The notes: generated by a model from the sequence alone, not told the origin. A stretch of 64,000 bases of DNA from an uncultured virus (IMG/VR IMGVR_UViG_3300021425_003921) (IMGVR_UViG_3300021425_003921); one strand, 5' to 3'; counted from the stretch's first letter, positions 1-27,000 are shown. Numbers and translations are program-made.

Positions 1-303
1 TCATTCTGAATCCTCCGAATTGAAGATTGATTCTCGATCGGTAGCAAATTCTTCGTAAAATCCTAATCCTAAAATTAAAAAGGGAACTCCCATAAGTAGA
101 TAATCAGAAACATAAAAAGAGCCATTGGGCCAACCGTGTTGTTTGTGAGTGCGAATAACACCTAACATAGTAGTAGTAAAAAATGCTGCTGAGCCGACAG
201 CAGGAATTAGAAGATTCCTCCAAGCCTTGCGACGAGCCGACATTTTGGCTTCTTCTTCTTCGGATCGCTTTTCCGTGATAATTTGTTTTTCAACTTTAGT
301 CAC
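1..303 (-). CDS. Small two-TM membrane protein
   Basis: 100-aa ORF with stop at 1-3; two hydrophobic stretches (LLIPAVGSAAFF; YLLMGVPFLILGLGFY); ends FNSEDSE. Confidence 0.8.
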   Translation of the reverse strand: MTKVEKQIITEKRSEEEEAKMSARRKAWRNLLIPAVGSAAFFTTTMLGVIRTHKQHGWPNGSFYVSDYLLMGVPFLILGLGFYEEFATDRESIFNSEDSE

Positions 304-859
304 GATTTCGACCTCCTAATAATTTGATTAAGCCTAAAGTTGCAATAGCACCGATAACAATTCCCTTGGGCTTAACAGTATCTTCAGCACCAAACCACTT
401 TTGATACCAAGAGGAATCTGTGGATTCTTCAGTAGGTGCGGTTTGTAATTTAGTGTTATCCGTAGGTTCAGTTCGACATCCCAAAGTAGGCCATAAAGGA
501 TTGCAAACTCGTTGGTTATACATTTTTCGAGAGTAAGAGCCGGGGGCGTGTTCCGTAATGTATTTCCAATCTTGAGGATCTGCACCCGAAGAAGGGGTGA
601 TTCCAAATAATCCTGCAATACCTGAAAGAGTAAAAGGAAGTCCGGCTGAACCATAGGGTTGGTAAGCATTACCATCTTGGTCTAAAACGGTAAGATTGGG
701 TTGCCAAGCGGTGCCAGCAGCCGAAGTGGTGCCTTTACTAATAGGATTGCCCGCAGAATCGTAACCGATAATTTCTTGTTTTTGTCCTGAACTGGTAGTA
801 ACATAACATTTACGATTATACAAATCGCCGGGGTCACAAGTAATGTTATAACCGACCAC
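296..859 (-). CDS. Hypothetical tail-anchored protein
   Basis: GTG start after GGAGGAG SD; C-terminal TM GIVIGAIATLGLIKLL followed by GGRNRD. Confidence 0.8.
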   Translation of the reverse strand: MVGYNITCDPGDLYNRKCYVTTSSGQKQEIIGYDSAGNPISKGTTSAAGTAWQPNLTVLDQDGNAYQPYGSAGLPFTLSGIAGLFGITPSSGADPQDWKYITEHAPGSYSRKMYNQRVCNPLWPTLGCRTEPTDNTKLQTAPTEESTDSSWYQKWFGAEDTVKPKGIVIGAIATLGLIKLLGGRNRD

Positions 860-861
860 TA

Positions 862-1689
862 TTACTCCTCCTTAGAAAATCGACGAAGTAAAATTAATGA
901 TGCGGCTAATCCTACTAATCCAAATCCTAAGGTGAGGGCTTTTGAATTAGAATTGGGGATTTCCATAGGTCCCACAGATTCATCAGCCGTAGCAATAATA
1001 AGTTCTAAAATGTCGTCAGCAGAAACTTGGGGACAAGTAATAATCCAATAATTTTGTTCTCGACTAACATTGACTTCGGGAGCCCATTCTTTCCATTCGG
1101 GATGTGCTTGAAGTCGTAACCAATGATCGGGTTCAATAGCATAATCCATGCCACCACCACCAACTTCAGCCGATTTTTCTTCTGAAGGTTTAATTCCATA
1201 ATCTGTGGGATTGATTTCTTCAGGCTCCTCGGTTTCAGAACCATAAGTAACACAAGGGTCTTGCCCACAACCACAGTTTTTCTTTTTGGATTCGGAAGCC
1301 ATACTCAGAGGTCCAATGTTATCGTCATCATCAGATTCTGCATGAAGGGGGGTTGTATTGCTGGTAACTGTATCTTCAGTTCCTTCGATAGCCGTTTCCA
1401 CACCAGCCGTGTTTTGACCAATAACTTTGCCATCGCCCTCAGGCATAAAATCGTCAGCAGGAACTACAGTTTCTGATGCTTTGGCTTCCACAACTTGTTG
1501 TTCAATAGTTAATCCTAATTTTTCGGCTACTTCTTCAGCCCGATCCTTACTGCAAGTTTTGGTGACTTTGTATTCTTTGCCACCTTCCTTGTAAAGACCC
1601 TTGAGAGAATATCCCTTTTTCTTAACTACACCGGTAACTTTAGTTTTTACCTTTTTCCGAAGAGCCAAACAATAAAATTCTTCTTTCAT
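862..1689 (-). CDS. Tail-anchored protein with basic N-terminal beta domain and acidic linker
   Basis: Lys-rich N-terminal ~60 aa (FYCLALRKKVK...), CGCGQDPC motif, several x-x-[AS]-E motifs, C-terminal TM ALTLGFGLVGLAASLILL+RR. Confidence 0.8.
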   Translation of the reverse strand: MKEEFYCLALRKKVKTKVTGVVKKKGYSLKGLYKEGGKEYKVTKTCSKDRAEEVAEKLGLTIEQQVVEAKASETVVPADDFMPEGDGKVIGQNTAGVETAIEGTEDTVTSNTTPLHAESDDDDNIGPLSMASESKKKNCGCGQDPCVTYGSETEEPEEINPTDYGIKPSEEKSAEVGGGGMDYAIEPDHWLRLQAHPEWKEWAPEVNVSREQNYWIITCPQVSADDILELIIATADESVGPMEIPNSNSKALTLGFGLVGLAASLILLRRFSKEE

Positions 1690-1693
1690 TTAA

Positions 1694-2257: not shown

Positions 2258-2278
2258 AAGAATAGATTGACTCTCCCA

Positions 2279-2287
2279 CTATATATA
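2279..2287 (-). promoter_or_regulatory. Archaeal-type TATA box (TATATATAG), leaderless transcript
   Basis: G is 22 nt from the ATG at 2257; same spacing recurs across the window. Confidence 0.85.
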
Positions 2288-2296
2288 TTTATCGTA

Positions 2297-2644: not shown

Positions 2645-2660
2645 TACTCCGTTTTACTAT

Positions 2661-3236
2661 TTATAGTTTCTTACCCAAAAAGTAAGCCAAACCGAAAGCA
2701 GATAAAATTGCAATTGGCTTTGCATAAGATTTTCGGAAACTCAATCGAGATAAATACTCTGAATCGAATTCGAATTCGGGCATAATTTTAATTTCGGTTT
2801 GTAGTTCATCAAGACGGTTTGACAAGTCAGATTGTTGTCTTTTAGCAGTAAGGTATCGCATGGTTTTTTGCATTCCTTGAGATTCCATGTCTTTAATTTC
2901 ATCACTAAGATCTAAATACAAATTAAAAAGAGTTTGGAAATCTTCTTCATCATCAATAGAAACCATTTCTTCAATATAATAGGAAGTTGCACCTGTGGTT
3001 TCTGCAGAATAATCATCTTCAATCCATGCGTTATCACAATCGCCACAAATCATTTGCTCAAAATAATCTTTACTGCTGACAATATTATCACAAGAGCATT
3101 GTTCGCCGGGAATTAAATCATCTTCGCCACATTGGGAACAATAATAAACTTTAGTATAATCTACATCGTCAGAACCACATTGGTTACAAGGTATGTTGGA
3201 ATGGTGCCATTCACCACCAAATTTATGATAAGCCAT
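2661..3236 (-). CDS. Zn-ribbon, coiled-coil, tail-anchored protein
   Basis: CNQC, CSQC, CSC, CGDC; YSAE boundary; helical middle; C-terminal TM IAILSAFGLAYFL+GKKL. Confidence 0.8.
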   Translation of the reverse strand: MAYHKFGGEWHHSNIPCNQCGSDDVDYTKVYYCSQCGEDDLIPGEQCSCDNIVSSKDYFEQMICGDCDNAWIEDDYSAETTGATSYYIEEMVSIDDEEDFQTLFNLYLDLSDEIKDMESQGMQKTMRYLTAKRQQSDLSNRLDELQTEIKIMPEFEFDSEYLSRLSFRKSYAKPIAILSAFGLAYFLGKKL

Positions 3237-3245: not shown

Positions 3246-5207
3246 TCAGTAAGTTTGATAACCTTTGTTTTGCTTTTGATTCATTTTCTTTTGAGCATCG
3301 TTAATGGCTCGTTGAAGATCAGCAGTTTGCGTGATGTTAAACAAGCGTGGGTTTTGGCCTAAGCCTCCATAAGCACCCATAGCGGTGTAAACTCCGGGGC
3401 TTCGTTCCCATACCCAAACGGAATAAAATTTATTGGAACTTTCATCAGTTAGTCGAAGGAAATGTGGGCCCCATGTGCAATCACCCCATTTAAAACTACC
3501 ATAGTTAGCAGAAACAGCGTTTTTTACATTGGTTTTTTCTCGACTTAGATTAGCAGGGGCGGTGCTACGAGCAGCAAAGGTTTCAGCACTCATTTTCTTA
3601 GCAGCACGGCGAGCATAATCGTCAGCATCATCATAATCTTCGCCCATATCTATGTATTCATCAGCAATTACATCTGCTACGGTATTATCTTTAACTGAAA
3701 CCCAATCTTTATCTTCCCACATTACTTCCGCATCATATTCCCACTCTTCGTAAGTTTCGTAATCAGGTTTAGGCGAAATAATATCAAACATAAGAACTTC
3801 GTATTCAAATTCAACATCGATTTCGGTGGAACCATCACGGGGGTAAAAAGAGTCTTGTAATACGCCCTTCGGTTTTTGGTGAATCATTTCTTCAAACTCA
3901 TCTTCTAAAGAATCGTTGCACCAATTGTGAGCCCATTTCTCAAACTCTGCTTCGTATTTGGGATTAAGGGGTTGCAAGGTTTTCCACTTAAAATCAACTT
4001 CGAAATAGTAATCTTCCATTTCCGTTGTGGTTCTTCGACGCGTTCCGGATTTATTCAAAACTCCAATATCGCCATCGGCGGAATAATCTTCGGCTCGCCA
4101 AGTTCCGCTGGGAACGCCCATAAGGTCTTTAATATAATCAGAGGCTTGAGAACGATTCATATTATTTTTGACGGTGCCACCCAAATCATTGATTTTCCAC
4201 TTTTGTCGTTGGGTAATAGGATCGGAGTAAGCATTAAACTCGGCACCATATTCCCAATATTCTTTATCTTCGTAATCAACATCACCGACTTCAGTTTTAT
4301 CATCGAGTTGCCAATTAAATATGACTGTAATTTCATCAGAACCATCAGAAGGATAAAACTCTTCTTCCCAACCTCCATCTTCTTCTTCATTTTCAAGGGC
4401 TTCATCGAGGTTATGATCCATCCATTCCTCAATTTCTTGTTCAGCCCATTGTTCAATCTCTTGACGATATTTAGTATCTGCTTTTTTATAAGTTTCCCAA
4501 TCAACATCAACTACAATATCAAATCTTTGAACTTGAGTAACTTGTCGCCTTCCCGTGGTTTCAAGATAATGTCTATTATCGCCATCTATAATTTCTTCGG
4601 CGTTAAAACTCCAAGGTCCAATTTGAGCGTTAAATCGACCATCATCTTCAGCATGATATTTAGCAGGAACATGGCTATGAAGTTTCTTAGGACACTTAAT
4701 ATCTCCATTAAGAAGAACAACTTCATATTCATCCTTTTTGCCCTTGATAGGTTCTAAAGCACCACCGAGACCACTACAACGAATAACTAAACTGGGAGTT
4801 TTAAGTGATTCTACATACTCTTGAACCATAAGTTTCATGCTTCCGGGCATACTCTTAGAAGGTTGGGTAGGGAATTCTACAATAGCACCATATTTGGTTT
4901 TGGTAACCATGTGAACTCCAGCACGGTTGGTAGCATCCCACTTAATTTCATCAATCTTGTAAGGCCCATCTTGATAGGTAGCATAAAGACCACCACGGAA
5001 AGTTTTGTGACGAGCAAGATATTGTTGTTCGGTATTGTTTTGAGCGTGGGAAGAAGGGAAGTGTGCTACCATAGCGAATTCTCCGACTTCTACTTTGCCA
5101 GTATGCTTTAGTTCGGTAGGTAGCATTCGTAGATCCATCATGGTTCCAAAAAGGAAGCCAATGTTTTGTCCACCCAATTCTGATACTTCTGGTCGAGTCT
5201 TAGCCAT
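3246..5207 (-). CDS. Modular 653-aa protein with an internally duplicated acidic domain and a C-terminal WGR-like domain
   Basis: Two repeats (FYPSDGSDEI / FYPRDGSTEI, ending EYGAE / EYDAE); C-terminus SNKFYSVWV...YGGLG...KQNKGY matches the WGR-domain pattern. Confidence 0.75.
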   Translation of the reverse strand: MAKTRPEVSELGGQNIGFLFGTMMDLRMLPTELKHTGKVEVGEFAMVAHFPSSHAQNNTEQQYLARHKTFRGGLYATYQDGPYKIDEIKWDATNRAGVHMVTKTKYGAIVEFPTQPSKSMPGSMKLMVQEYVESLKTPSLVIRCSGLGGALEPIKGKKDEYEVVLLNGDIKCPKKLHSHVPAKYHAEDDGRFNAQIGPWSFNAEEIIDGDNRHYLETTGRRQVTQVQRFDIVVDVDWETYKKADTKYRQEIEQWAEQEIEEWMDHNLDEALENEEEDGGWEEEFYPSDGSDEITVIFNWQLDDKTEVGDVDYEDKEYWEYGAEFNAYSDPITQRQKWKINDLGGTVKNNMNRSQASDYIKDLMGVPSGTWRAEDYSADGDIGVLNKSGTRRRTTTEMEDYYFEVDFKWKTLQPLNPKYEAEFEKWAHNWCNDSLEDEFEEMIHQKPKGVLQDSFYPRDGSTEIDVEFEYEVLMFDIISPKPDYETYEEWEYDAEVMWEDKDWVSVKDNTVADVIADEYIDMGEDYDDADDYARRAAKKMSAETFAARSTAPANLSREKTNVKNAVSANYGSFKWGDCTWGPHFLRLTDESSNKFYSVWVWERSPGVYTAMGAYGGLGQNPRLFNITQTADLQRAINDAQKKMNQKQNKGYQTY

Positions 5208-8664: not shown

Positions 8665-9315
8665 TCAGGCTTGGGCTTGAAGTAGGCTTCGCTTATACCA
8701 GTCTACATTTCCTGGGTTGATGGAGATACCCATTTCCAACAGTTTGTTGGCGATGAGGGCATCAGGACCATCGTAAAGCGTATACTTGACGAAACATTGT
8801 AGTTCGTCAGGAAGAGCGTTACCCGTGGTGTTGGTGAAAGCACCTTGGTTGTAGTAGGTTACGAGAGCGTCCCAAACTTGACCTGGAAGAACATATACAT
8901 CAGGGTATAGGTTGAAGGAAGGTTGGAAGTTGATGCTTCGTGGGTAAGGTGAACCTGAACCTGGGATACCATCGTTAGGAATGTTATCAGGGTCGAGGAA
9001 GTAGTCGGTGGTGTTAATTCGGACTTGCACATAGGCACGAGGTCCAGCGACACCAGCAACACCCGTGCTACCCGTAAAGGTAGTTAGACCACGGATCTCA
9101 GTTCCTGCAGCGACAGCGGAGTGAACACCGAGGGAAGGTGTTACAGCGATGTCTTCAATAACGACGAATTCGGTTGCAGTTGTTTCAGCAGGCTTGGTAA
9201 TGTTGTTACCGAAACCACCAACAAAGATAGAGGTTCTCTTACCTAAGTTAGTAGCAACAGTAAGTGCGGTTCCACGGCTTGCGTCCCATTCATATACTTG
9301 GCTTCTCATTGACAT
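8665..9315 (-). CDS. Candidate major capsid/structural protein, paralog B
   Basis: Paralog of 9353-10000; beta-rich and T/G/P-rich; NNC-biased codons; SD GGAGATGA supports start at 9315 (MSMRSQ). Capsid role is inference. Confidence 0.6.
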   Translation of the reverse strand: MSMRSQVYEWDASRGTALTVATNLGKRTSIFVGGFGNNITKPAETTATEFVVIEDIAVTPSLGVHSAVAAGTEIRGLTTFTGSTGVAGVAGPRAYVQVRINTTDYFLDPDNIPNDGIPGSGSPYPRSINFQPSFNLYPDVYVLPGQVWDALVTYYNQGAFTNTTGNALPDELQCFVKYTLYDGPDALIANKLLEMGISINPGNVDWYKRSLLQAQA

Positions 9316-9352
9316 ATTTTTCATCTCCTAAATTATTAATTCCGTGTCGGAA

Positions 9353-10000
9353 TCAGGCTTGACCTCCAGCGACACGGGAGCGTTGTTGTTGTTCGATAAG
9401 GCTTCGCTTATACCAATCAACATTGTTGGGGTTGATGGTGACACCAAGTTCGAGCAACTTGTTAGCGATAAGAGCATCTGGACCATCGTAAAGCGTATAC
9501 TTGAGGAAGCAAGATACTACTTGAGTGGTGGTGGCAGTTGTTCCATCTCGGGAAGTGTAGAGAATTTGGAAAGTTTGACCTGGAAGGACATAAACATCAG
9601 GGTAAAGATCGAAAGACTTTAGGATGTTTTCTGAACCTGCGGAGGTGGAATCGACAGCAGTAGTATCGATGGTTGAAGGAGCACCACGAGGGTATGGGCT
9701 TGCCAATCCTGGGATACCGACCATATCGGTAACATCAGGGTTTTGGAAGTAATCCGTCGTGTTGATTCGGATTTGCACAGCACTACCGATTACGGGTGAT
9801 GCAGCAATATCTTCAATTACGATGAATTGGGTGGCGGTCGTTTCTGCGGGCTTGGTAATGTTGTTACCTACACCACCAGTGAACAAGTCGTATTCACGGT
9901 TTGCCGTGAGTGCGACCGGTTGGTCGGTTGATGTGCGTCGTAGTTGATTACTACTTGCTTGTAGGTTACTCCATTCATATACTTGGCTTCTCATTGACAT
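9353..10000 (-). CDS. Candidate major capsid/structural protein, paralog A
   Basis: Shares MSMRSQVYEW, NNITKPAETTAT, RINTTDYF, LYPDVYVLPGQ and KYTLYDGPDALIANKLLE...VDWYKRSL with 8665-9315. Confidence 0.6.
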   Translation of the reverse strand: MSMRSQVYEWSNLQASSNQLRRTSTDQPVALTANREYDLFTGGVGNNITKPAETTATQFIVIEDIAASPVIGSAVQIRINTTDYFQNPDVTDMVGIPGLASPYPRGAPSTIDTTAVDSTSAGSENILKSFDLYPDVYVLPGQTFQILYTSRDGTTATTTQVVSCFLKYTLYDGPDALIANKLLELGVTINPNNVDWYKRSLIEQQQRSRVAGGQA

Positions 10001-10309: not shown

Positions 10310-10918
10310 TTAGTAACCCATGGCTTTATACATTTCTTTGGCTTTAGCCATGTCGCCCTTAGCATCTCGGACACAGGATCGCCATGCTTGTTGCTTAGGA
10401 GATCCCGAAGTTTTTTTGACTTCAGTTACTTCAGCAGCCTTAATTGTTTCCGAAGCCTTAGAACCACAGCCACAGGCAGCGTAATAATCATCATGTTCGG
10501 CACAGAAAAGTGCTTCTTCGGCAGCAAGGTCTTCAGCAGAAATATCTTGAGGTAGTGGGAAAGTTCCTGGATCGAGACCCGAGATGGGTCGAATATCGAT
10601 GTAATCCATGATATCATCGCTGGCATCGTCTACATATTGAACGACGGTTTTTACGACGGGAACTTCAATAACTTCGCTAACAACAGGAACTTCTCGGGCT
10701 TTTCGGAGTAGAACTGCCAATCCAAGAGTTGCGGGGACAACACCTAAAATGCGTCCAACAGTAACGGCTTTTCCACCAAGATAAGGAATCATAGAGGGAA
10801 CTGTGGCGACACGGTATGAAAGAATATCAGCAAAGCGAGTGCTAAAAAATCCAAATCCGACGAGGAGGAGAGATCCTCCGACTGTATATTCATTAACAAT
10901 AGTGCTTCGCAAATTCAT
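10310..10918 (-). CDS. Two-TM hairpin membrane protein with acidic/Cys-containing tail
   Basis: GGTGA SD supports ATG at 10918; resembles 10951-11277; clustered ISAE, LAAE, FCAE, KASE, KAAE. Confidence 0.75.
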   Translation of the reverse strand: MNLRSTIVNEYTVGGSLLLVGFGFFSTRFADILSYRVATVPSMIPYLGGKAVTVGRILGVVPATLGLAVLLRKAREVPVVSEVIEVPVVKTVVQYVDDASDDIMDYIDIRPISGLDPGTFPLPQDISAEDLAAEEALFCAEHDDYYAACGCGSKASETIKAAEVTEVKKTSGSPKQQAWRSCVRDAKGDMAKAKEMYKAMGY

Positions 10919-10950
10919 AGTATCACCAAATTTTGTAGTGGTTAGTAAAC

Positions 10951-11277
10951 TCAACTACCGTAGTAGGTTGGGACACCGTTTCCGCTGCCACCTGCTGAGT
11001 CTTCGCCCCAGTTGTAGCCGGTTTCTGCGGCTGCTTCTTGAGCGATGTCACCAAGGAAAGGAATGTCCATTCCAAGGTATCGGCGGCTTAGGGTTACAGC
11101 ACCAACGGCAAGAGGAACTACATACATAAGAGTTCCAAGGTTTACATTGATGACGGGAACGGTGTAGGACATAACATCCGTGAACATTCCGCCAACAAGT
11201 CCGGCTGCACCGACTACGAAGAGTGAGGCTCCGACAGTCGTTGGGTTTACAAGGGTATTCATAATTGTGTTTAACAT
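10951..11277 (-). CDS. Two-TM hairpin membrane protein
   Basis: 108 aa; TATA at 11324 (47 nt away) plus GGAGAG SD, i.e. leadered like the candidate capsid operon. Confidence 0.8.
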   Translation of the reverse strand: MLNTIMNTLVNPTTVGASLFVVGAAGLVGGMFTDVMSYTVPVINVNLGTLMYVVPLAVGAVTLSRRYLGMDIPFLGDIAQEAAAETGYNWGEDSAGGSGNGVPTYYGS

Positions 11278-11335: not shown

Positions 11336-12322
11336 TTACATTCCGAACACGGAGCCATTTCCTTCGGCACCACGAACATGGTTTCCAATAGTAGTGGAGA
11401 ATAAGCCTTCAGCACCATAGTATTGAATGGGCTGACCGGGATTGACGACACGGTGAGATCCGAGAATGTAGGATTCTCCTGAATCTGCCGTAGTTGGAGG
11501 TTTCATATGGGGAGAAACTTCCTGAACCATTGGGTTTGGAGTTCCCATTCCCATAGTGGGTTCTTCGGCATTATAATTTACCGGGGGTTGATTAGGGGTA
11601 TAAGTAGACATAGTTAGAGGGTTGCTACGACCAAGGTTTTGAGCGTTAAGACCCATGGTGTCGGCAGCAGAAACATAATCTGACATTTCCATTTCGACAG
11701 GATTCATAACGGTGGTAGATTCAATCATGCTACCACCAAAGTTTTGGTCTACTCCACCCGTAGGAGTAACTACATCTTGAGCACCAAAGTCTTGAAAGAC
11801 TCCGTGACCAAGTGGTGCATCTTCGTGAACAGAAGACATAGGAAGGTTATCCATACCTCGTTGCTTGAGGCGTTCTGTGGAGGCTTCAGTATCCCAATCT
11901 TCAGCATTTTTGATATCAGAATAAGAGTGAGTAGCAGTTTCTTGACCAATAACAGATCCACTACCGGATTGAGGTAGTTCTTCAGCAGAATATTGTCCCA
12001 AAAATCCACCGATTCGTGGAGATACCATACCGGCTACTTGAACTACTGAGGAAAGGATAAGAGCCGTTCCTGCAAAGTTGAGGGCTTTTCCATAGCCTGT
12101 GGGTCGAGCACGAGAAGTAACAATTAGGTAACCACCTGTGAGAGCAGTAAGAGCAGTTCGACCTACTTCAGCCCCACGACCTAAGCGGTAAAAGGGAAGC
12201 ATAGTAAGAAGACCGCCGATAAAAGCACCTGCGACTAATCCAAATGCACCTGCGTAAGTTGATTCTTCAGTAAGGACATCAAAAGATTCGTCCAATGTTG
12301 ATGGAGCCATGTTATAATCCAT
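11336..12322 (-). CDS. Three-TM membrane protein with long low-complexity C-terminus
   Basis: Three N-terminal hydrophobic helices; tail with YSAE, KNAE, FGAQ, YNAE, YGAE, RGAE; TATA at 12344. Confidence 0.8.
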   Translation of the reverse strand: MDYNMAPSTLDESFDVLTEESTYAGAFGLVAGAFIGGLLTMLPFYRLGRGAEVGRTALTALTGGYLIVTSRARPTGYGKALNFAGTALILSSVVQVAGMVSPRIGGFLGQYSAEELPQSGSGSVIGQETATHSYSDIKNAEDWDTEASTERLKQRGMDNLPMSSVHEDAPLGHGVFQDFGAQDVVTPTGGVDQNFGGSMIESTTVMNPVEMEMSDYVSAADTMGLNAQNLGRSNPLTMSTYTPNQPPVNYNAEEPTMGMGTPNPMVQEVSPHMKPPTTADSGESYILGSHRVVNPGQPIQYYGAEGLFSTTIGNHVRGAEGNGSVFGM

Positions 12323-15402: not shown

Positions 15403-16791
15403 TTACTTTTTAAGCAATTTCATACCAATAACTGCGAGAACGGCTCCGGCACCAGCCATAGCAAGAGGGCTACGATACATTGGTGGTCGGTATCGGAGAG
15501 ACATTCCATCAACCGTATCGGCAAGAAGCATCATAAAGTCGTCAGAAGAGATGTATTCTCCGGAATCCATTTCGTCAATAAATTCGTAAGGTTGGTAATC
15601 CATAGGCTCTGCCGCATCTACCACAGATGGTGTGGCTTCGGCACGGCGAACCATAGCATCGCCTTGGTTTCGGAAACCGACAGGTTGTTGAGTTTTAGCA
15701 CTATTTCGAAGGTCGGCCTTGATAGAATTGCTAACTCCAACATTGCTAATGAATTGTCCTTTAGCGTTGCGAGCCACATATCGAGAGTTGCCCTTGATGT
15801 GATCGAAGCGTTGTCGCTTTCCGTATTTTCGCTTGCGGCCTTGAGCAGCGAAATTGGTTGGGAAATCTTCGGATTCCAATTCAGCACGATAATGGATTTC
15901 GTGATCATAATCAGCACCGGCTTGACCGACGGCTTGAGTAGTCATAAGTTGTGAATCAGCACCGAAGTGAATATCAGTAGGTGGCACGGAAGCAGAAGAA
16001 TAACCATTTTCTTCAAATTGAATAATAGCGTTAGAAGTTTCAGATTCCATCTTCATCTTTTTACGAGAAGGTCGGCGTTTAATAGCACGAAGTTTAGATT
16101 CCATACGACGCTTTCGCTTAAGAGCAAGTTTATCAGCAGGAGTCATATCACCTTCTGCAAAGAGATTAAGAGAAGTATCCAATTGGTCGGTAATTAGTTC
16201 GGAGCCTGAGGCTGCTTCAGTAGTAGGATTCATCATAAGAGGTTCGGAAGCATCAAGAGCGACATCAGCCGGGGCTTCGGAAGCATAAGATTCAGCAGCA
16301 TTAATTTGTCCCAATTCAGATTGAAGTTCTTCAACCTTGGTTTTGATAGCAGATTCATTATCGAAAATAAATTCGTTAATCATGAATTCGCCGGGGGAAG
16401 AAGTTGCCATATCTTTAAGTTCCTCAAATGTGGTAGCAGCGGGATCGGCTTGTCGCATAACATCGCCACCCGTTTCGTAACCAGACTTTTGGCCTTTGGT
16501 ATACATACGACGAATAACTGTTCCTGCGGAAACTTGTCCTACAATAACGACATCGTTTTGAGATTGAATAGCCACAGGGGTAAAACCGTGATTATCAGTT
16601 TTATCAGTTACATAGAATAAAGCACAGCGATATAGTTTAGCACGGTCGGTTTCGTCGCCCATGGAATCGTATTGTGATTTGGGTAGCGTCCAAGTGTTTT
16701 TGTAGAACCCTGTGGAATCATCTTTAGTGCTGTTATCAAAGCCCCAATAATCTTCTGAAAGGATGTATACCATCTTGTGATTTGTTGCCAT
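15403..16791 (-). CDS. Modular tail-anchored protein with basic modules
   Basis: Alternating acidic and Arg/Lys-rich modules separated by LFAE, MESE, FGAD, YRAE, FAAQ, RRAE; C-terminal TM LAMAGAGAVLAVIGM+KLLKK; TATA at 16813. Confidence 0.8.
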   Translation of the reverse strand: MATNHKMVYILSEDYWGFDNSTKDDSTGFYKNTWTLPKSQYDSMGDETDRAKLYRCALFYVTDKTDNHGFTPVAIQSQNDVVIVGQVSAGTVIRRMYTKGQKSGYETGGDVMRQADPAATTFEELKDMATSSPGEFMINEFIFDNESAIKTKVEELQSELGQINAAESYASEAPADVALDASEPLMMNPTTEAASGSELITDQLDTSLNLFAEGDMTPADKLALKRKRRMESKLRAIKRRPSRKKMKMESETSNAIIQFEENGYSSASVPPTDIHFGADSQLMTTQAVGQAGADYDHEIHYRAELESEDFPTNFAAQGRKRKYGKRQRFDHIKGNSRYVARNAKGQFISNVGVSNSIKADLRNSAKTQQPVGFRNQGDAMVRRAEATPSVVDAAEPMDYQPYEFIDEMDSGEYISSDDFMMLLADTVDGMSLRYRPPMYRSPLAMAGAGAVLAVIGMKLLKK

Positions 16792-16823: not shown

Positions 16824-18818
16824 TTACTGTCGTAAACGATTTCGGAATCTTTCTAATAACGACGGAGAACCATCTCCTTGGTCACGGAAACCGGGTGGGG
16901 CCCATGTTTGAGATTTTCGGCGTCGGTCCATAGCAATACTACGACCTACATCTACATTTTTCATATAAGTTCCATCTCGTCGTCGGCGGATAAATCGGCG
17001 GTTACCCCATCGATCGATAGCAATTTTTCGTGGATTGCCGTAGAAAGGTCGAGGACCTAATTCATTATATCCTGTTTCAGCACCAAACTTTTCTCGGATG
17101 TGTTTGGGGGTAGAGTTGAGTATGGACTTTAGTTTAAGACGAGTTCCAGAAGTTAAGTATTCTCCTTCACCATCTTCGTCTACAAATAGACTATCATACC
17201 AAAATTGATGTTCGTGATGAGGTTCGGCATCATTTCCTGTATGATATTTCCACATTTCAATAATTGTGGTTTCATCAGGATTGCCCAAAAGCCAAGCCTT
17301 TTCTTGATTCTGTAGTAACTTAGCACCACCAGATTCGGCCCGCTTTCGCTTAGATAATCCGGGTGTGCCATCCATAGGTCGCCAATTAGCCATTTCTCCA
17401 AACTCCATAGGATCCATAACAGGGGTGTTACCTTCTTCGGAGGCTAACTTGTAAAAAGCAGAAGTTTCGTATTTTTTAGAACAGGGCTCACAATAAAAAT
17501 CATTTTGCATTTGTCCACCATATTCAGAAACCTTGGGATTTTCAAAATCATCATCGATAATTTCCCATCGAATAACACTATCTTGGAAGTTATACTTGGC
17601 AGGCTTGCCACAATAATCGCAGGGATATTCGGGTTCGTCTTCTTCCTCAGCAGACTTTACGGGAGCACAGTCACGGCAGATTGGTTCCTCATCATCTTTT
17701 GTGCGAGTCATGTTTTCGGATTGGTCAGAACACCAATCACAGTAAGGGACTCCACATTCTACACAAGACACGGTATCATAATTGTCAATATAATTTTGAC
17801 AGGCTTCGCAACTGTTCATATCTTCCGCACAACTATTACAGATTTCATGAGCCGCCATTCCTTCAGGATGTTGGCGGTTGGAACATTTAAAGCAATAAAC
17901 ATAACAACCACGACAAACATTACCTTCTTTGGTGTCGGTCATTTGCCAATCTTTATCGCCACAAACACTACATTTACATAAGCAACAATCATCGCAACGG
18001 TCACAATCGCTACAATAACAGGCTCCGCAACCGTCTTCAGCACAGTCAGAACATTGAATTGGGTCATAATCTTCTAAGTTTTCACCACAAGAAGAACAAC
18101 CTTCATCTTCAGCGTTAGCGAAAACCGTCATATGTCCTGAAGAATTAAGTGAGGATTTGTCAAAATCTCCTGAGCCCCAAGTAGAAGTGAGTTGATCTGT
18201 AGACAAACCGATACCAGAAAGAGCACCGCTACCCGCATACGGGGCTTCTTTGACTTCGGAATAAACGGAGACACGATAATAGCCTTCTCCTTCGGGACCA
18301 TCTTCATCATAAATCCACTTAGAACTGCAAGCCTCACAAATGTTATCTTCGCCCTCAATGTCGCCATCGGGATTGGGTAATCCTGTAATATAGCAATCGG
18401 GGCCTTCGGCTTCTTCTGACCACTCTAAAAAGTCAATACCATCTAAATGGCTGTCTTCACAAGTTTCGCCTTCAGCACCGTAAGATTCTGCTTTATATTT
18501 TCGATTATAAATGGAATAGGCTACAGCAATTGCCATTTTTTGTGCGTCTTTTCGAGTAGGTGGTCGGTTTTTTCCGATCTTACCGGTCTTTTCCCAAGTG
18601 TGCATAATATCGCTAATGATTTTGGAAATTTGGGTGTTTTTCTTTCGCTTGCTGGCGGAAACTGTTTTACGAGGTGCCTCAAAAGAATCAGCACTCATTT
18701 CCTTTCGCTTTTGAGCAATCTTTTGTTGGCGAGCCTTTTTCTTTCCTCGCAACACACGAGTTCGAGGACCTGTGCTTACCCATGGAGGTTTGCTATAATT
18801 ACTCCACTTGTCAGCCAT
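16824..18818 (-). CDS. Modular Cys-rich (multiple CxxC) protein with basic terminal modules
   Basis: More than a dozen CxxC pairs; basic N- and C-terminal modules; boundaries at YKAE/YGAE, ANAE, KSAE, LASE, KRAE, FGAE. Confidence 0.8.
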   Translation of the reverse strand: MADKWSNYSKPPWVSTGPRTRVLRGKKKARQQKIAQKRKEMSADSFEAPRKTVSASKRKKNTQISKIISDIMHTWEKTGKIGKNRPPTRKDAQKMAIAVAYSIYNRKYKAESYGAEGETCEDSHLDGIDFLEWSEEAEGPDCYITGLPNPDGDIEGEDNICEACSSKWIYDEDGPEGEGYYRVSVYSEVKEAPYAGSGALSGIGLSTDQLTSTWGSGDFDKSSLNSSGHMTVFANAEDEGCSSCGENLEDYDPIQCSDCAEDGCGACYCSDCDRCDDCCLCKCSVCGDKDWQMTDTKEGNVCRGCYVYCFKCSNRQHPEGMAAHEICNSCAEDMNSCEACQNYIDNYDTVSCVECGVPYCDWCSDQSENMTRTKDDEEPICRDCAPVKSAEEEDEPEYPCDYCGKPAKYNFQDSVIRWEIIDDDFENPKVSEYGGQMQNDFYCEPCSKKYETSAFYKLASEEGNTPVMDPMEFGEMANWRPMDGTPGLSKRKRAESGGAKLLQNQEKAWLLGNPDETTIIEMWKYHTGNDAEPHHEHQFWYDSLFVDEDGEGEYLTSGTRLKLKSILNSTPKHIREKFGAETGYNELGPRPFYGNPRKIAIDRWGNRRFIRRRRDGTYMKNVDVGRSIAMDRRRKSQTWAPPGFRDQGDGSPSLLERFRNRLRQ

Positions 18819-18819
18819 A

Positions 18820-19659
18820 TCAAACTCTCCTTAGTAATAGTTCTTCTCCGCCAGACATAGGAATGGCTCTAACCATAGTATCAGAAATTCGGAGAAGGTT
18901 ATAAGATTGTCGCCATCCATCCAAAGATTTAGTAGAAGCACCATCGGTGTATCCTGAATTGACGGAAGGGTCTAAAGATAATTGTCCAAAGCGGCCATTA
19001 AGATCGCCATCAGTAGAGTTACGAGCCATATCGCCAAAACGATTGTCGCCATCAACTACTGAAGCAACTTCTTTAAAAGGAGCATTAACATAAGATACCA
19101 TATAAGGGAAATCTCGATTTACTTCAGGAGGTAATTTATTATATCCACTAACATTAGGTCCATAGCCCCAACTTCCAAATCCGGGAAGGGTTCCAACAGG
19201 AGTAATAGAATTAGTTTCTTTTAGTTTACCGTAAACTGCACCTTGGCCGGGGGCTTCGGCTGACATTTCTCGGGGAGCATATTCTTGAAGAGGGTGAGTA
19301 GTCCTATTCATGTCAGCAATAAGAGCGTCATCATCATAACCCATATCGTATCCATTTTCGTAAACCGCTTGATGGTCGATAACACCGGGTCCGAAAGGAA
19401 GGTCATTTGCTACCATGGTAGTGTGTTCTAAATCTAAATACTGATATCCCATAAAGGCTTCAGAAAGGGCTTGGGGAACAAAGTCTAAAGTAGTGCCCGA
19501 TCTTTCGATGTGCATTTCCTCGTAATCAGCAGGTGTTAATTCATCAGCGTTAAAAACTTGATTAAGCGGTCCCAAAGATAATTTTCCTCGGGAAACTGCC
19601 CATGCCAAGCCACCAACTACGGCTACGCCACTAAAAAAGTAATAAAGTGGAGACTTCAT
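18820..19659 (-). CDS. N-terminally anchored membrane protein
   Basis: TATA at 19682 places start at 19659 (MKSPLYYFFSGVAVVGGLAWAV) rather than 19713. Confidence 0.8.
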   Translation of the reverse strand: MKSPLYYFFSGVAVVGGLAWAVSRGKLSLGPLNQVFNADELTPADYEEMHIERSGTTLDFVPQALSEAFMGYQYLDLEHTTMVANDLPFGPGVIDHQAVYENGYDMGYDDDALIADMNRTTHPLQEYAPREMSAEAPGQGAVYGKLKETNSITPVGTLPGFGSWGYGPNVSGYNKLPPEVNRDFPYMVSYVNAPFKEVASVVDGDNRFGDMARNSTDGDLNGRFGQLSLDPSVNSGYTDGASTKSLDGWRQSYNLLRISDTMVRAIPMSGGEELLLRRV

Positions 19660-19703
19660 AGTAGCAAAGTTGGCATCCCTACTATATATATTTTGCCTTC
19701 TTA

Positions 19704-20639
19704 TTATCGCCATAGATAATCAGCAAATCTTTCAAATCCGTGAAAAGGATTAAAGGTAGTTACCACTCCACCGTATTGTAATTCCTTTAAATTATATTCT
19801 GATAATTCATTATCTCCTATTTTGTGTTGTTGCGTTTTGTTCCAAGTATAATCCCGAACTCGTTTTTCTTGAAACCGAAGTTCATACATAAGAGGGTCGG
19901 GAATTAATTGCGTGGGATATCCAATATCATTAAAACCATAAAAATCAGTCGTATCTAAGCCAATGGCTTCGGCTTCTAAGCGTTGCGTTTTTTCTTTATT
20001 AGCCCTCCAAGCCGCATCATGACGAACAAAAATTAAATTAGAAATAGATTCCCGAGTTTCGATTTCTTGTTTAGTAAGTGGGTCTACCCAAATAAGATCG
20101 GCTTCATAGGGAGTAACTCGTAAAATGTGAGCGGTGGCTAATTTACCAGCATTTTTTCCGGGTCGTGAAACTGAAACAATATCTCCCGGTTCCCAATCTT
20201 TTCTTTCAGAACCAATCTTACGATGTCCAAATGGTGTTTCTACTTCCGATAAACTTGGTTTGTTGGTTAGCAAACTTTTAGCAATTTGCTGTTCTTCAAA
20301 GCGTTGTTTAGCATCCCAAAAAGCACGAAGAGTTATGTTATCATGAATTTGTATTCCTTCAGAATTGTATAATTTTTGGTCTACTAAAAGTTGTTGATAC
20401 TCTTTAGGAATATCCTCATCGTGAATTTTAGGACCTTCAAATAATCCCAAAAACTTAGGGTGGGAAGATCCTCGTTTAGTGACAATAACTAAATCTTGAT
20501 ATTTTTCCGTAGAATTAGTTCCATCAGGCCAAGCCACTCGGGCTTTTTCTAATCCGGTGTATACTACGGTTCCTACTAAAAAATCATCTTCGATAGCATT
20601 AGATACTACTCGATCGCCAACACGAAAATTAGACAACAT
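19704..20639 (-). CDS. Protein with two SH3/Tudor/KOW-like beta domains
   Basis: FRVGDRVV...GTVV...ARVAW...DLVIV and WEPGDIVSV...HILRV...DLIWVD...NLIFV. Confidence 0.6.
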   Translation of the reverse strand: MLSNFRVGDRVVSNAIEDDFLVGTVVYTGLEKARVAWPDGTNSTEKYQDLVIVTKRGSSHPKFLGLFEGPKIHDEDIPKEYQQLLVDQKLYNSEGIQIHDNITLRAFWDAKQRFEEQQIAKSLLTNKPSLSEVETPFGHRKIGSERKDWEPGDIVSVSRPGKNAGKLATAHILRVTPYEADLIWVDPLTKQEIETRESISNLIFVRHDAAWRANKEKTQRLEAEAIGLDTTDFYGFNDIGYPTQLIPDPLMYELRFQEKRVRDYTWNKTQQHKIGDNELSEYNLKELQYGGVVTTFNPFHGFERFADYLWR

Positions 20640-21081: not shown

Positions 21082-21612
21082 TTACAACGGGCGACGACCC
21101 GTAGAAACTTGTTGCACTTGGTAATCAGCAGGGCGACCAGACCATCGAGGGTGATAAGCAGGACTCCAAGGGCGAGGGAAACGATATTCGGGAAGAGTAT
21201 CATTCCAATTATCCCAAACAGCACCGTAAGCCGGGCGAAGATCGCCATTATAATCCATCATATAAGTATCATGATATAGTCCGGACGGGGTTTGATAACT
21301 TCGAGGGTTGGGAGGAACTGCAAAAGCAGGAGAACCCACAGGAACATTGTAATTATAAGCCCCAATTCGGGAACCAAAAACACGGCCATGGGCTGATTCA
21401 GCACCCATAATATCTTGAGCACCGTGAACTTCGGTGGGGTTGAGATGATTTACTGAGGAACCACCACCCGACAAATTTTCTTGGTCTTCAGCATTTTTAG
21501 TAGAACCACAATCACAATTTTCGCAATCATCAGAACATTGACAACTGCCATCATCGCAACAAGGGCAACCTTCTTTTAATCCTAAGAAAATTAAAATTTT
21601 ATCCAAAATCAT
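21082..21612 (-). CDS. Hypothetical protein with N-terminal Cys cluster
   Basis: CPCCDDGSCQCSDDCENCDC followed by KNAE; ATGA overlap with upstream gene. Confidence 0.75.
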   Translation of the reverse strand: MILDKILIFLGLKEGCPCCDDGSCQCSDDCENCDCGSTKNAEDQENLSGGGSSVNHLNPTEVHGAQDIMGAESAHGRVFGSRIGAYNYNVPVGSPAFAVPPNPRSYQTPSGLYHDTYMMDYNGDLRPAYGAVWDNWNDTLPEYRFPRPWSPAYHPRWSGRPADYQVQQVSTGRRPL

Positions 21613-23735: not shown

Positions 23736-24584
23736 TCAAAATGGGGTTCTTAGGTGGGCGTCAGCACCAAACATTCTTCCGTTTCCTGTTCCAAAGGAGG
23801 TGCTAAGACCCTTCATGTCAGAATTTCGGACAGGTGGGGCTACACGCTCGGCTTCCATACGGATTTTCTTAGCAGGGGCAAGATTCTTGGCCCATGAGTT
23901 TGAAATCATTGGTTGGGTAGAAGCAGGAATAACAGGTCGTTCTCGGATTGGAATTCGTTGTTCAGTTCGTGGAACATTGACTTGTGGGGCACCACTACTT
24001 AGTAGACGAGGGTTGGTAGGTCGAATAGCGTTGCGGTCTACTTCGAAAGCAGGAGAACCACCGAAAACTTCGGTAGGTTGGTGAGCATCAAAAGAAGGCA
24101 TCATGGTTTCTGGCTTAACACGGCTAAGTCCTGAGACATCAGGTGTGTGGTCCATATCGCCATAGATTTCTTGCATATGTGAAGGTCGTAGATATTGTCC
24201 TTCAGGAGTAAGTCTTTGACCCATCAAACCATAAGCATTAACATCGAAATCAGAGTTTCGGCCTGATTGAATAGCAGAAAGATCTAATTTAGGCATTCCA
24301 ATCTTGGTAGGGGCAGGGCGAGGAGCGTTAGGAACAACACCTTGTCCGAAACCACCGCCCATAAGAATTTCTTCAAGAGAAAGTCCTTCACCTTCAGGAA
24401 CTGCAAAGTTAGGGGTGTTGATAATTGGTGCTGCTGGGCGAGGTGCTGCAACAGTCAAAGATTGTCCCATAGCGTTGCGAGCCGACAAAGTATCACGAGT
24501 TAGAGAAACTTGTGGTAGGGTCGGCAAATTAGGTTGGTAAGGTCCGTCAGGCAATACTGTGGATTTTCCGATAACTCGTGCCAT
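23736..24584 (-). CDS. Pro-rich, probably disordered protein
   Basis: 282 aa; TATA at 24606. Confidence 0.8.
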   Translation of the reverse strand: MARVIGKSTVLPDGPYQPNLPTLPQVSLTRDTLSARNAMGQSLTVAAPRPAAPIINTPNFAVPEGEGLSLEEILMGGGFGQGVVPNAPRPAPTKIGMPKLDLSAIQSGRNSDFDVNAYGLMGQRLTPEGQYLRPSHMQEIYGDMDHTPDVSGLSRVKPETMMPSFDAHQPTEVFGGSPAFEVDRNAIRPTNPRLLSSGAPQVNVPRTEQRIPIRERPVIPASTQPMISNSWAKNLAPAKKIRMEAERVAPPVRNSDMKGLSTSFGTGNGRMFGADAHLRTPF

Positions 24585-24621
24585 AATAATTACTCCTTGC
24601 TTCTACTATTTATACTTTTAC

Positions 24622-24975
24622 TCAATATCGGTTTAGAATTAGGCTGACGACGGAGTAGGCTCCGATGCCAACTAAAGCCATAACACCCAACTTTTTGAAA
24701 TCCATACCAAAGTTCATACCTTCAGCAGCCTTGGTTTCGAGATCTGATTCAGATTCGCCTTGACCATCATCTTGTTGAACGGATTCTTCATCTTCTTTTA
24801 CAACATTGGCTTCAGTCATAGTATCTTCTTTAGCAACCATGCCCAAAGTAGAATCGGTCATAGCAGAGGCGTTGTTTAGGTTATAGGAGTGCAGGGCACC
24901 CGCTTCAGTTTCCCACGGGAAGCAAGAAACTCCGGTGTTTGTATCTTGAATTACAGGCACATCGTTTAGTAGCAT
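24622..24975 (-). CDS. Tail-anchored protein
   Basis: Acidic region ending KAAE; C-terminal TM LGVMALVGIGAYSVVSLIL+NRY; TATA at 24997. Confidence 0.8.
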   Translation of the reverse strand: MLLNDVPVIQDTNTGVSCFPWETEAGALHSYNLNNASAMTDSTLGMVAKEDTMTEANVVKEDEESVQQDDGQGESESDLETKAAEGMNFGMDFKKLGVMALVGIGAYSVVSLILNRY

Positions 24976-25013
24976 GAAGATAAATAATCATCACGACTAT
25001 TTATAGTTTACTA

Positions 25014-25802
25014 CTATTTATTGATTGAATAATCAGGATAATAAGTAGTGGGCAAACGGTCTAAAAGCCCTAAAGAGTCTAAAAACCCGGTAACAGGATA
25101 GTTAATAGTAATTCCAAGAATTTTATTATCATCCCAAAGTGGATAAGGATTAAGATAATTGACTGGAAGATAAAAATCTCCGGGTTTATTTTGTAGATCA
25201 GCAAGGTTTTTGTGATGATGATTATCATATTCTCGTTCATTGTAAGTTACATTATCTGCTGAAACGATAAATCCGGCTCCTAACTTGGGTTTAGATTTTC
25301 CTTTAAACTTATAATTGCGATTGGTAAAACCGGGGGTTCCGACAACAAACTTAGGATCGTAATCAGAAAAATTTTTTAAATCAGGAACAATAAAATTGGC
25401 AGTAGTTTGCCAACGAACTGAAATAGCATAAGTTTGTTCTTCGGCAGCAAAAAGTAATTGTTGCGAGGAGCCTTCAGGTTTGAGAGGTTTTACCGATTCT
25501 GAAGATTTGGTAAGAGGAATCCACCTTTTAGGAGTAGTTTTAGTAGACCATGCTACGGGACCCCATAACAACGCATCATAAACTGCAATTTGCATTCCGT
25601 TGCGAGAATTAATCATTAAAGAGCGAGGCTGTCCGTCTTTTTTAGTAGTTTTTCGAGCATAAAAATAAAGAGGATATTCGGCAAACAATTCTAATTTGGT
25701 GGTAGAATAAAGAGCCAACCATTCTTCATCAGATAATTCATTAAAATCTTCAAAAGGTATTTTTAGATCTGAGGGTATAATATAAGCCTCACCGACATTC
25801 AT
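25014..25802 (-). CDS. Hypothetical two-domain protein
   Basis: 262 aa, FAAE near midpoint; TATA at 25825 with inverted repeat. Confidence 0.8.
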   Translation of the reverse strand: MNVGEAYIIPSDLKIPFEDFNELSDEEWLALYSTTKLELFAEYPLYFYARKTTKKDGQPRSLMINSRNGMQIAVYDALLWGPVAWSTKTTPKRWIPLTKSSESVKPLKPEGSSQQLLFAAEEQTYAISVRWQTTANFIVPDLKNFSDYDPKFVVGTPGFTNRNYKFKGKSKPKLGAGFIVSADNVTYNEREYDNHHHKNLADLQNKPGDFYLPVNYLNPYPLWDDNKILGITINYPVTGFLDSLGLLDRLPTTYYPDYSINK

Positions 25803-25821
25803 ATCGAAATTATGTTTCGAT
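25803..25821. promoter_or_regulatory. Inverted repeat (candidate operator), same family as 14598-14616
   Basis: atcgaaa-ttatg-tttcgat followed by cacctatttata, as at 14617-14628. Confidence 0.7.
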
Positions 25822-25842
25822 CACCTATTTATACATTTACAA

Positions 25843-27000
25843 TTAGGCAGAATTGAGTCCTCGATACACCAAAAAGCCTAAAGTTCCAGTTAATACCACG
25901 CCTCCGACGACGGCGGCGACAACTAATCCGGAAGCAGAATCTGTGGATTCTTCTTCTTCCGCTTCTAAATCATATTCAAATTCGGGTTCTTCAGGAATTT
26001 CAGACCATCCCACAGAAGGCTCGGGTTTGACAGAAACGGGTAAAGAGGCCATAACTTCGGCTTTGGCAGTAGAAAAAGTAGGTTTGGAAACCGGGGGTTT
26101 GTTGATTTCTAAAGGACGGTCTAAAGAAGATAAAGAACGGTGGTCATCAACTTCTTCTTGAGAAAATCGTTCCCGAGCATCTTTGACTTCAATGTTATGA
26201 CCTTTGTGTTCAGTTTTTCGGTCACCACGGATTTTTCCGACAACCACATATCCTCGATCTCGATAAAACTCGGGGGCATAAGCAATAACTTCTCCTTTTT
26301 TGGCTTTGGCAATTCCATCTAACATTCGCTTAATGGTTTTTTTATCGGTTCCGAATGATAATTGGTCGTCAAGGGCTTTGAGATCCCGAGCGTTAATAAC
26401 ATTGTGAACCAAATAAATCGAGGCTTGGGATAAGGCTTCTTTACCGACACCGGCAGGTCGTTGAGAGATTAGAGTGGCTCCATAACCGAGAGCCCGACCT
26501 AATTTACAAAGTCTAACGATAGCATCAGCCGAATTAGGTTTACCCATTTGAGGAATAAAGTCTTGACATTCTTCAAACACCGTCATAATTCCTTTCCCCA
26601 AGGTGCCTTCGAGAAGAGCCTCACAATACTCGGTAATCATTTCTTGTTGTTTGGCTAACGGCATACCGGCCATAGAAATAATAACTGATTTAGGAGTATT
26701 TCGTAGAGTTTCTACTAATTCTTTCATATTAATAGTTTCGGCAGGTCCGGGACGAAGGGGAACTACATTAGTTAATTGGTCACCAATATGTCCGTGAGCG
26801 TCAAGAGCATCGAAACACACAAATTGAAGTCCTAAGCGATGATACTCTTCCATAATTACGGCAGCAGTCCAAGATTTCCCAGAGCCACGCTTTCCGGTGA
26901 CGAAAAGCACCTGTGAAATAATAGAATCGCTGCCATAGGCAGGAAAGTGAATGTCTTTACCCAAAACCACACGGTCAGGTAAATCAATTACTTCAGACAT
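25843..27000 (-). CDS. HerA/FtsK-superfamily ATPase with C-terminal membrane anchor (candidate genome-packaging ATPase)
   Basis: Walker A TGKRGSGKS, Walker B MTVFEECQ, arginine finger KLGRALG, motif LISQRP; C-terminal TM VVAAVVGGVVLTGTLGFLVY. Confidence 0.85.
   Translation of the reverse strand: MSEVIDLPDRVVLGKDIHFPAYGSDSIISQVLFVTGKRGSGKSWTAAVIMEEYHRLGLQFVCFDALDAHGHIGDQLTNVVPLRPGPAETINMKELVETLRNTPKSVIISMAGMPLAKQQEMITEYCEALLEGTLGKGIMTVFEECQDFIPQMGKPNSADAIVRLCKLGRALGYGATLISQRPAGVGKEALSQASIYLVHNVINARDLKALDDQLSFGTDKKTIKRMLDGIAKAKKGEVIAYAPEFYRDRGYVVVGKIRGDRKTEHKGHNIEVKDARERFSQEEVDDHRSLSSLDRPLEINKPPVSKPTFSTAKAEVMASLPVSVKPEPSVGWSEIPEEPEFEYDLEAEEEESTDSASGLVVAAVVGGVVLTGTLGFLVYRGLNSA

Follow-up and report, generated by a model that had tools for sequence, protein, structure and literature searches.

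The closest described systems for the sequence element considered here are found in T4 and the jumbo phages and in eukaryotic viruses with double-jelly-roll capsids. The former are head-tailed viruses with the HK97 fold, in which the capsid and portal proteins are cut, mostly by the removal of N-terminal propeptides; the prohead proteases are gp21 in T4 and gp175 in phiKZ. In the latter, pp220 and pp62 of African swine fever virus (ASFV) are processed by pS273R, and vaccinia I7L and adenain of the adenoviruses act likewise. These are Ulp1-like cysteine proteases which cut at Gly-rich sites and give a fixed product order, and adenain reads a hydrophobic P4 and a small P2. For SPN3US, gp245 is reported to cut after AXE and to take off its own propeptide at the C-terminus (PMC10052503). 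Here, a stretch of 64,000 nucleotides from an uncultured virus (IMG/VR IMGVR_UViG_3300021425_003921), referred to at its full length as the window, was found to encode an enriched tetrapeptide motif, [FYM]-x-[AS]-[ED] with the core [FYM]-small-A-E, which is probably a site cut after Glu in cassette polyproteins by a virus-encoded protease.

The analysed set consisted of 77 non-overlapping open reading frames (ORFs) translated from the 64-kb window, 37 in 1-27 kb and 40 in 27-64 kb, all on the minus strand, as are the window proteins described below. A previous reading made from the sequence only had proposed a looser pattern, [FYLMKRH]-x-[AS]-[EDQ], as pervasive in the first 27 kb, and all 12 of its quoted strings that were checked occur in the ORFs of the window. 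Against 1000 within-protein shuffles the loose pattern was enriched as claimed, with 122 matches in 1-27 kb vs 62.8 ± 7.4 after shuffling (maximum 87) and 104 vs 78.9 in 27-64 kb. The signal proved to be narrower and resided in [FYM]xAE, which was counted 24 times in 1-27 kb vs 4.7 expected (z 8.8) and was not enriched in 27-64 kb (6 vs 5.1). The reversed dipeptide EA was flat (50 vs 45), as were SE, AD and AQ alone. The proposed number of about 30 carrier proteins turned out to be uninformative, because 33 of the 37 ORFs match the loose pattern and so do 26.3 of the 37 on average after shuffling (maximum 33). About 15-20 window proteins carry the core-type motif. Its sparseness in the 27-38 kb cluster, in the 1084-aa protein and in the enzymes was confirmed: [FYM]xAE was at chance in 17 enzyme, capsid and 27-38 kb proteins (3 vs 3.6), and the remaining 31 proteins of 1-27 kb gave 23 vs 4.0.

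The core pattern [FYM][SGNADE]AE was defined on the window (21 vs 3.9) and counted in five related records not used to define it, namely the IMG/VR records G001-G004, which measure 123-166 kb, and a contig of 136 kb within a metagenome-assembled genome (MAG; G005:C16), with 60 shuffles each for the window and G001-G004. The observed and expected counts were 46 and 10.1 in G001, 51 and 10.9 in G002, 48 and 10.3 in G003, 49 and 8.2 in G004, and 38 and 7.4 in G005. The corresponding z values were 11-13 in the five related records and 9-13 over all six, and the reversed-order controls were flat. In the cellular archaeal control, ten contigs of two archaeal MAGs (146 ORFs, 50,383 aa) in which a sample of genes was checked as cellular archaeal, no enrichment was detected (6 vs 10.0). 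Unguided discovery of three-letter patterns placed F.AE, M.AE or AE.F near the top of the non-Cys patterns in G001, G002 and G004; on the window alone the motif was not singled out, and in G003 it was swamped by collagen-like repeats. The sequence logo of the motif is partly circular. Pro at P1' was low (2/253 vs 25/899 in the background), not clearly below background, and was not used. Internal initiation at M-x-A-E was rejected, since F and Y equal M in frequency at P4.

It could be argued that acidic, Ala-rich proteins would give such matches by chance or compositional bias, and the 26 of 37 shuffled proteins matching the loose pattern mean that many individual loose hits are indeed chance. 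For the core motif this explanation is refuted by the shuffles within each protein, which retain composition, and by the flat reversed-order controls, and its probability is practically negligible.

The motif had also been placed between recognisable modules, and this was borne out. Of 301 internal ends of local matches, 62 lay no more than 3 residues from a site (18.4 expected), and the C-terminal ends of shared segments spiked at the motif Glu itself (22). The window proteins were also compared with their metagenome orthologues. In this comparison 34 of 83 junction ends were within 5 residues of a site vs 11.7 expected, with a pattern which was widened after inspection and was used for the null as well, and 20 of 83 were within 2 residues (5.8 expected). 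The individual rearrangements agree with these counts. The metagenome locus L047 has a capsid protein with 95% identity; in its orthologue of 15403-16791 an additional Cys-rich module lies between two sites, and the internal cassettes of 3246-5207 are exchanged between sites. L078 has more modules inserted at sites, also in the 15403-16791 orthologue, where the insertions fall exactly on sites. The DUF5872 module is bounded by sites on both flanks in 3/3 internal copies, each in a different precursor, and is N-terminal in G004. Two modules have a Met start in one genome and start directly after the motif Glu in another, and a WGR module ends with a stop codon in the window copy, the orthologue copies running on into a site. 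Further cargo modules of the relatives are PolX, Cu/Zn superoxide dismutase, GNAT, LigD phosphoesterase, helix-turn-helix, DUF5754 and DUF5872. The motif thus tags, at the level of the protein, the C-terminal end of modules that can be exchanged, and the relatives swap, insert and duplicate modules at it. Because each module bears its own C-terminal site, modules can be gained, lost, duplicated and moved among precursors.

Breaks exactly at the motif would also be left by a cassette-shuffling DNA recombination site of which the motif is the translated scar, without a function in the protein. The codons within the motif vary synonymously, since every Ala codon and either codon for Glu is used and three unrelated residues occur at P4, and therefore the constraint acts at the protein level. 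The motif is also held in single-domain core proteins over about 50% divergence. A scar origin is largely refuted by the codon variation and is considered very improbable.

Three of the carriers in the window are cassette polyproteins. The protein at 3246-5207 (653 aa) has a conserved N-terminal domain, variable internal modules, a C-terminal WGR domain and eight motif matches, with P1 at residues 187, 204, 288, 323, 378, 421, 494 and 542. The protein at 15403-16791 (462 aa) ends in a C-terminal membrane anchor and has sites at 172, 213, 251, 279, 304, 317 and 385; in comparison with its orthologues, 10/10 junction ends were within 6 residues of a site. The third, at 16824-18818 (664 aa), consists of basic, Cys-rich and acidic modules with a tandem site at 108-116, and its modules are shared piecemeal with different G001 and G002 proteins. 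The modular protein at 862-1689, with a C-terminal anchor, has a small Cys-rich module between sites 133 and 152, which has a Met start in G002 and follows a site in G001 and G003. A Pro/Gly-rich module of about 25-30 aa, ending in a Trp-Tyr-Gly variant of the motif, was present in many copies in precursors of several relatives (G001:74163-75833, G001:90734-92245 and L078). The proteins at 14630-15361 and 51169-52191 are paralogues with the same basic end module and an identical 11-residue tail which holds a motif variant.

The claim that the motif is conserved in homologues held for 30 of the 48 window sites testable against orthologues from 80 metagenome loci and G001-G004, which keep it in at least half of them, vs 95/6040 background positions. 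The 30 retained sites are spread over 13 proteins; several carriers, e.g. 16824-18818 with six sites, had too few full-length orthologues for the retention test. Site 133 of 862-1689 was kept in 12/13 orthologues, and both sites, 79 and 160, of the three-module protein at 2661-3236 in 3/3. In the N-terminally membrane-anchored protein at 11336-12322, which has a low-complexity tail, sites 114, 141, 253 and 305 were kept in 16, 15, 10 and 10 of 18. The corresponding values were 21, 13 and 12 of 23 for sites 146, 153 and 175 of the membrane protein at 10310-10954, 19 and 13 of 22 for sites 214 and 248 of the conserved protein at 12358-13191, 5 and 8 of 10 for sites 57 and 153 of the protein with a hydrophobic N-terminus at 18820-19713, and 2 and 3 of 4 for sites 246 and 275 of the Pro-rich conserved protein at 23736-24584. 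The N-terminal site 13 of 14100-14597 was kept in 11/14, the tandem site around 66-72 of 21082-21612 in 3/3, and site 159 of 296-859, between a conserved domain and a C-terminal anchor, in 7/11. In 13217-14068, site 115 separates an acidic N-terminal region from a conserved domain followed by a C-terminal anchor; the automated count was 6/20, and the four alignment rows shown have a site at the same junction. The acidic protein at 24622-24975 has site 85 ahead of its C-terminal anchor. Outside the first 27 kb, site 94 of the core protein at 40489-41301, which had been pointed out beforehand, directly follows the conserved N-terminal domain and was kept in the four relatives aligned (G001-G004), the length of the next stretch being variable. 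The residue at P1 alone was more conserved than the same residues elsewhere (0.57 vs 0.44, p 0.009), and at P4 the residues F, Y, M, L and K replace one another. The sites in the AAA ATPase, the glycosyltransferase, the HerA ATPase and 19704-20639 were mostly lost and probably are chance matches.

Besides the widening of the junction-test pattern, several results weigh against a cleavage site. The motif was not retained at 18 of the 48 sites, and P4 and P2 showed no more identity than these residues did elsewhere (0.46 vs 0.51 and 0.48 vs 0.43, respectively). The window-only junction test against G001-G004 was not significant (5/38 vs 1.7, maximum 6), and the junction tests are partly self-fulfilling because an alignment is apt to end at whatever conserved word it meets.

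The previous reading had proposed a virus-wide protease site, which is the best explanation on the comparative evidence, although the cleavage itself, the position of the cut and the location of the products in the virion are inferred. The tetrapeptide would be the P4-P1 recognition site, and a maturation protease would cut after the acidic residue. In a large linear archaeal virus, many internal and membrane-associated virion proteins would be made as precursors, each a series of small modules that is often tethered by a helix in the membrane, the cargo in the window being WGR domains and basic and Cys-rich peptides. The precursors would be anchored in the viral membrane, possibly with the help of a Get3-family ATPase, and be enclosed by an uncut jelly-roll shell. 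One precursor would thus be loaded in assembly and then cut into separate proteins.

The same reading had named a docking or packaging role as the alternative, in which the motif binds capsid, scaffold or chaperone, the cargo is recruited and the precursors stay whole. The spacing of the sites (20 of 175 are exactly 5, none 4), which also counts for the cleavage reading, and their placement in acidic linkers would suit multivalent binding, and no known protease family was found in the Pfam and PHROG scans of the window and most of the G001 and G002 ORFs. For recruiting a fusion protein a single copy would be enough, yet the modules are flanked by sites on both sides and are swapped between sites. 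In addition, the motif moves with the upstream module and homology ends at Glu, and the equivalents with a Met start put the start of the module directly after Glu. Docking is therefore regarded as unlikely.

If the sites are cut by an enzyme of the virus, the leading candidate is a membrane-anchored JAB/MPN-like protein, known from the relatives (G001:123193-123999). It was detected in 5/5 searchable records and has 329 homologues. Among 67 core families, no other unannotated one having a pattern of the catalytic type was as conserved, as judged by eye. Among the 120 homologues listed of the 329, Glu34, His83, His85, Ser100 and Ser101 are invariant and Asp103 is present in 119. This Glu, His-x-His and Ser-x-x-Asp pattern resembles the JAMM consensus, as given in PMC300881. 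The language-model features of the protein were nearest to DUF4329, Toxin-JAB1 and Prok-JAB (0.92). A motif site of its own lies between the JAB-like domain and the membrane helix in 94 of 114 helix-bearing homologues and in 46 of 53 clusters below 80% identity, so that the enzyme would release its own catalytic domain by cutting its own site. The JAB literature also describes a pocket that would take extended peptides having small residues (PMC3482391, PMC3239186).

This assignment is opposed by a number of observations. The gene lies outside the region syntenic with the window. The Pfam DUF4329 match was below the cut-off (17/75 members at E 0.004-1), hhalign gave 4% vs archaeal Prok-JAB and 0.2% vs three DUF4329 domains, PDB sequence searches with the alignments gave nothing meaningful, and in profile searches of five records with PF14220 and PF14464 the best E was 0.07. 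The His-to-Ser spacing is 14 and not the 7 of JAMM, for which hhalign needs a 7-residue insert; the membrane anchor and the lack of a ubiquitin-like partner, none being seen here, are further differences from JAB/MPN proteins, with which the invariant E...HxH...SxxD pattern is shared. In the literature, a nuclease role has been proposed for DUF4329/Tox-JAB-2, and JAB peptidases are described as acting on ubiquitin-like tails only (PMC3482391, PMC3239186). Moreover, 91 of the 114 homologues have a second site beyond the membrane helix, and 71 have sites on both sides; as these flank the helix, a single protease on one membrane face could not reach both, which would suit docking better. To account for the second site, the membrane sheet would have to be open, the cut would have to precede insertion, the helix would have to be non-spanning, or the motif would have to serve in docking. 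When the JAB-like domain was modelled in complex with zinc and a motif peptide of 33 residues, the score was 0.01, which is neither support nor counter-evidence. The sequence thus weakly suggests a JAB/MPN identity, and the chance that this protein is the enzyme cutting the motif is estimated as slightly below even.

The sites may instead be cut by another enzyme, which could be a HExxH metallopeptidase-like protein (30680-31930), a protease of the host, or a viral protein whose fold was not recognised. In favour of the second candidate, besides the doubtful JAB assignment, the HExxH is kept in the four aligned copies (window, G001, G002 and G003) and the gene is also present in G005. It was not found in G004, the one of the five records without it, which has 49 core sites vs 8.2 expected, though G004 may be incomplete. 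The conservation of the JAB-like family and the lack of motif enrichment in cellular archaeal proteins speak against this alternative. Altogether, cutting by another enzyme has a rather low probability. As to other candidates in the window, the N-terminal domain of 15403-16791 was rejected as a cysteine protease, its Cys and His being replaced in G004, and that of 3246-5207 was considered and is absent from the core families common to G001 and G002. No Pfam match for an Ulp1/adenain-clan protease was found in the scanned ORFs of the window, G001 and G002, where remote homologues could be missed.

The HExxH gene belongs to a cluster at 27040-38449 which also encodes vWA, Zn-finger-rich and large AAA proteins, the last of which we take to be MoxR-like. 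The cluster is fast-evolving and is not at its syntenic place in G004.

The previous reading had further suggested that the motif defines the virion proteome, which did not hold, as the capsid proteins are devoid of it. The single jelly-roll major capsid protein at 9353-10000, identified by a model and structure search, and its paralogue at 8665-9324, 62% identical to it, have no core sites, and neither have 28 of the 29 jelly-roll-family proteins of the six records; in 150 capsid homologues 2 motif sites were found. For the two paralogues, 239 relatives were found with E ≤0.001 in a set of 50%-identity representatives. The capsid model reached a pLDDT of 93.4 from a 66-row alignment vs only 31.6 from the single sequence. 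The best Foldseek match of the model was the capsid chain of Sulfolobus polyhedral virus 1 (SPV1, of the Portogloboviridae; 6oj0_A, E 7e-4). The structural comparison with SPV1 resulted in Z 8.7 and a root-mean-square deviation of 3.1 over 134 aligned residues, the next row having Z 6.7. SPV1 was the sole chain with Z ≥8 among 48,161, although 8.7 is just modestly over the common range. As modelled, the capsid fold is a single jelly roll nearest to SPV1 and not a T4- or phiKZ-type head. A second capsid-gene pair is present in the relatives. The helical segment in which the capsid proteins end is also found at the end of the 1084-aa protein at 46247-49501, and the adjacent protein at 49548-50057 is another jelly-roll-family member; both are likely vertex or spike proteins.

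The SPV1 genome is circular and roughly 20 kb in size. In contrast, the records described here are of 120-166 kb, and two have exact terminal inverted repeats (99 bp in G001 and 30 bp in G002); they also encode TBP, TFB, PCNA, MCM and PolD subunits of their own, and their jelly-roll paralogues number up to four or more. A HerA/FtsK-like ATPase with a C-terminal anchor is encoded at 25843-27000 (Pfam DUF87; NCBIfam HerA-like below cut-offs) and was kept in 6/6 records; it is likely the genome-packaging ATPase. Its match to a PHROG labelled terminase large subunit was read as a shared ATPase domain. SPV1 is reported to have no packaging ATPase, and helvetiaviruses to have paired jelly-roll capsid genes and an FtsK/HerA-like ATPase (PMC8812541), a pattern matched here. 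An internal lipid membrane is probable, the many predicted membrane anchors being suggestive of it.

A Get3/TRC40-family ATPase is encoded at 44704-45702 (TIGR00345, 188.6 bits with a cut-off of 135; the ArsA equivalog was far below its cut-off). It is present in 6/6 records, with 9-20 predicted tail-anchored proteins per genome, and could possibly be a viral insertase for tail-anchored precursors. Whether the 120-170 kb jelly-roll archaeal viruses run a complete cassette system, in which the JAB metalloprotease cuts, Get3 anchors the precursors and the cargo, made up of DNA repair, redox and DNA-binding modules, is delivered with the genome, is a matter of tentative suggestion, somewhat doubtful as a whole.

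The gene order of the window is followed by G001 and G002. TBP, TFB, PCNA, MCM, primase, an archaeal-type resolvase and a PolD small-subunit-like protein were found in G001, the DP1-like protein being encoded at G001:19254-20588, and a full PolD DP2 is encoded at G002:54782-58351 (L017:782-4351, plus strand). PolD subunits beside TBP and TFB are unusual for a virus. Among the 120 TFB relatives listed, the sole organism-named match was a Thermoplasmatota TFB (54%). From the archaeal replication and transcription genes and this match the host is taken to be archaeal, probably a member of the Poseidoniia. Family contigs L124-L127 are binned into four MAGs, and as these bins name different archaea and one Rickettsiales bacterium, their labels are unusable as host evidence. 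The family is widespread, with at least 541 confirmed capsid-gene matches in one metagenome scan. In the GenBank phage records no match was found for the capsid protein and none for the JAB-like protein. Neither the lineage nor the motif was found in the literature searched, which did not cover subscription papers and preprint supplements, and these are apparently a large undescribed marine archaeal virus lineage. The Poseidoniales viruses Magrovirales and Adrikavirales share the marine origin, large genomes, archaeal replication genes and probably a related host group. They differ in that the lineage described here has a single-jelly-roll capsid protein, whereas they are classed as head-tailed Caudoviricetes (PMC12451623, PMC11706807).

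Several other window features were recorded. The protein at 54082-55776 has TSP3 repeats, a long GQ/Q-rich tract and a strong AT skew, and its repeat length differs among relatives. A small core protein at 43118-43483 has a DxD and SGxGxH pattern, which presumably resembles an archaeo-eukaryotic primase domain, and no family match. A similar 'IINW(L/I)' start in several short ORFs (56637-58493, also 50070-50603) may indicate a small paralogue family.

The parallel to T4 gp21 and phiKZ gp175 drawn by the sequence-only reading stands as a functional analogy. The proposed processing resembles the SPN3US gp245 type in its Glu-ended short motif, many substrates, repeated propeptide sites and a protease that sheds its own C-terminal tail (PMC10052503). 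In contrast to T4 and the jumbo phages, the capsid shell is a single jelly roll without motif sites, an aromatic residue or Met is required at P4, and the putative substrates are precursors of several modules that are shuffled. The Pfam and PHROG scans, which covered 73 window proteins and most G001 and G002 ORFs, yielded no HK97 capsid, portal or prohead protease. With ASFV and the adenoviruses the lineage would share a dsDNA jelly-roll virion and core proteins made as membrane-associated polyproteins that appear to be cut at a short motif. The motif [FYM]-x-A-E with its acidic P1 differs from their Gly-Gly or Ala-Gly sites, the host is taken to be archaeal, and the module content differs even between close relatives. 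By analogy, there is a functional resemblance to both gp245 and ASFV processing, and membership fails in both.

Proteome-wide maturation cleavage is known from tailed phages and eukaryotic jelly-roll viruses; no report of it in single-jelly-roll archaeal viruses was found in the literature searched, subscription papers being outside its coverage. If true, the present finding extends it to archaeal viruses. If the JAB-like protein is the enzyme, DUF4329-like domains would gain a testable peptidase function, possibly as a Glu-specific tag protease, and the protein would be the first of its family acting as a viral polyprotein endopeptidase. The lineage connects SPV1-like capsids with giant genomes having their own PolD and basal transcription factors. 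The motif permits the prediction of mature proteins and of the probable virion cargo of an uncultured marine group from genomic data alone, and the tag-bounded cassettes of its polyproteins are a route to rapid change in gene content.

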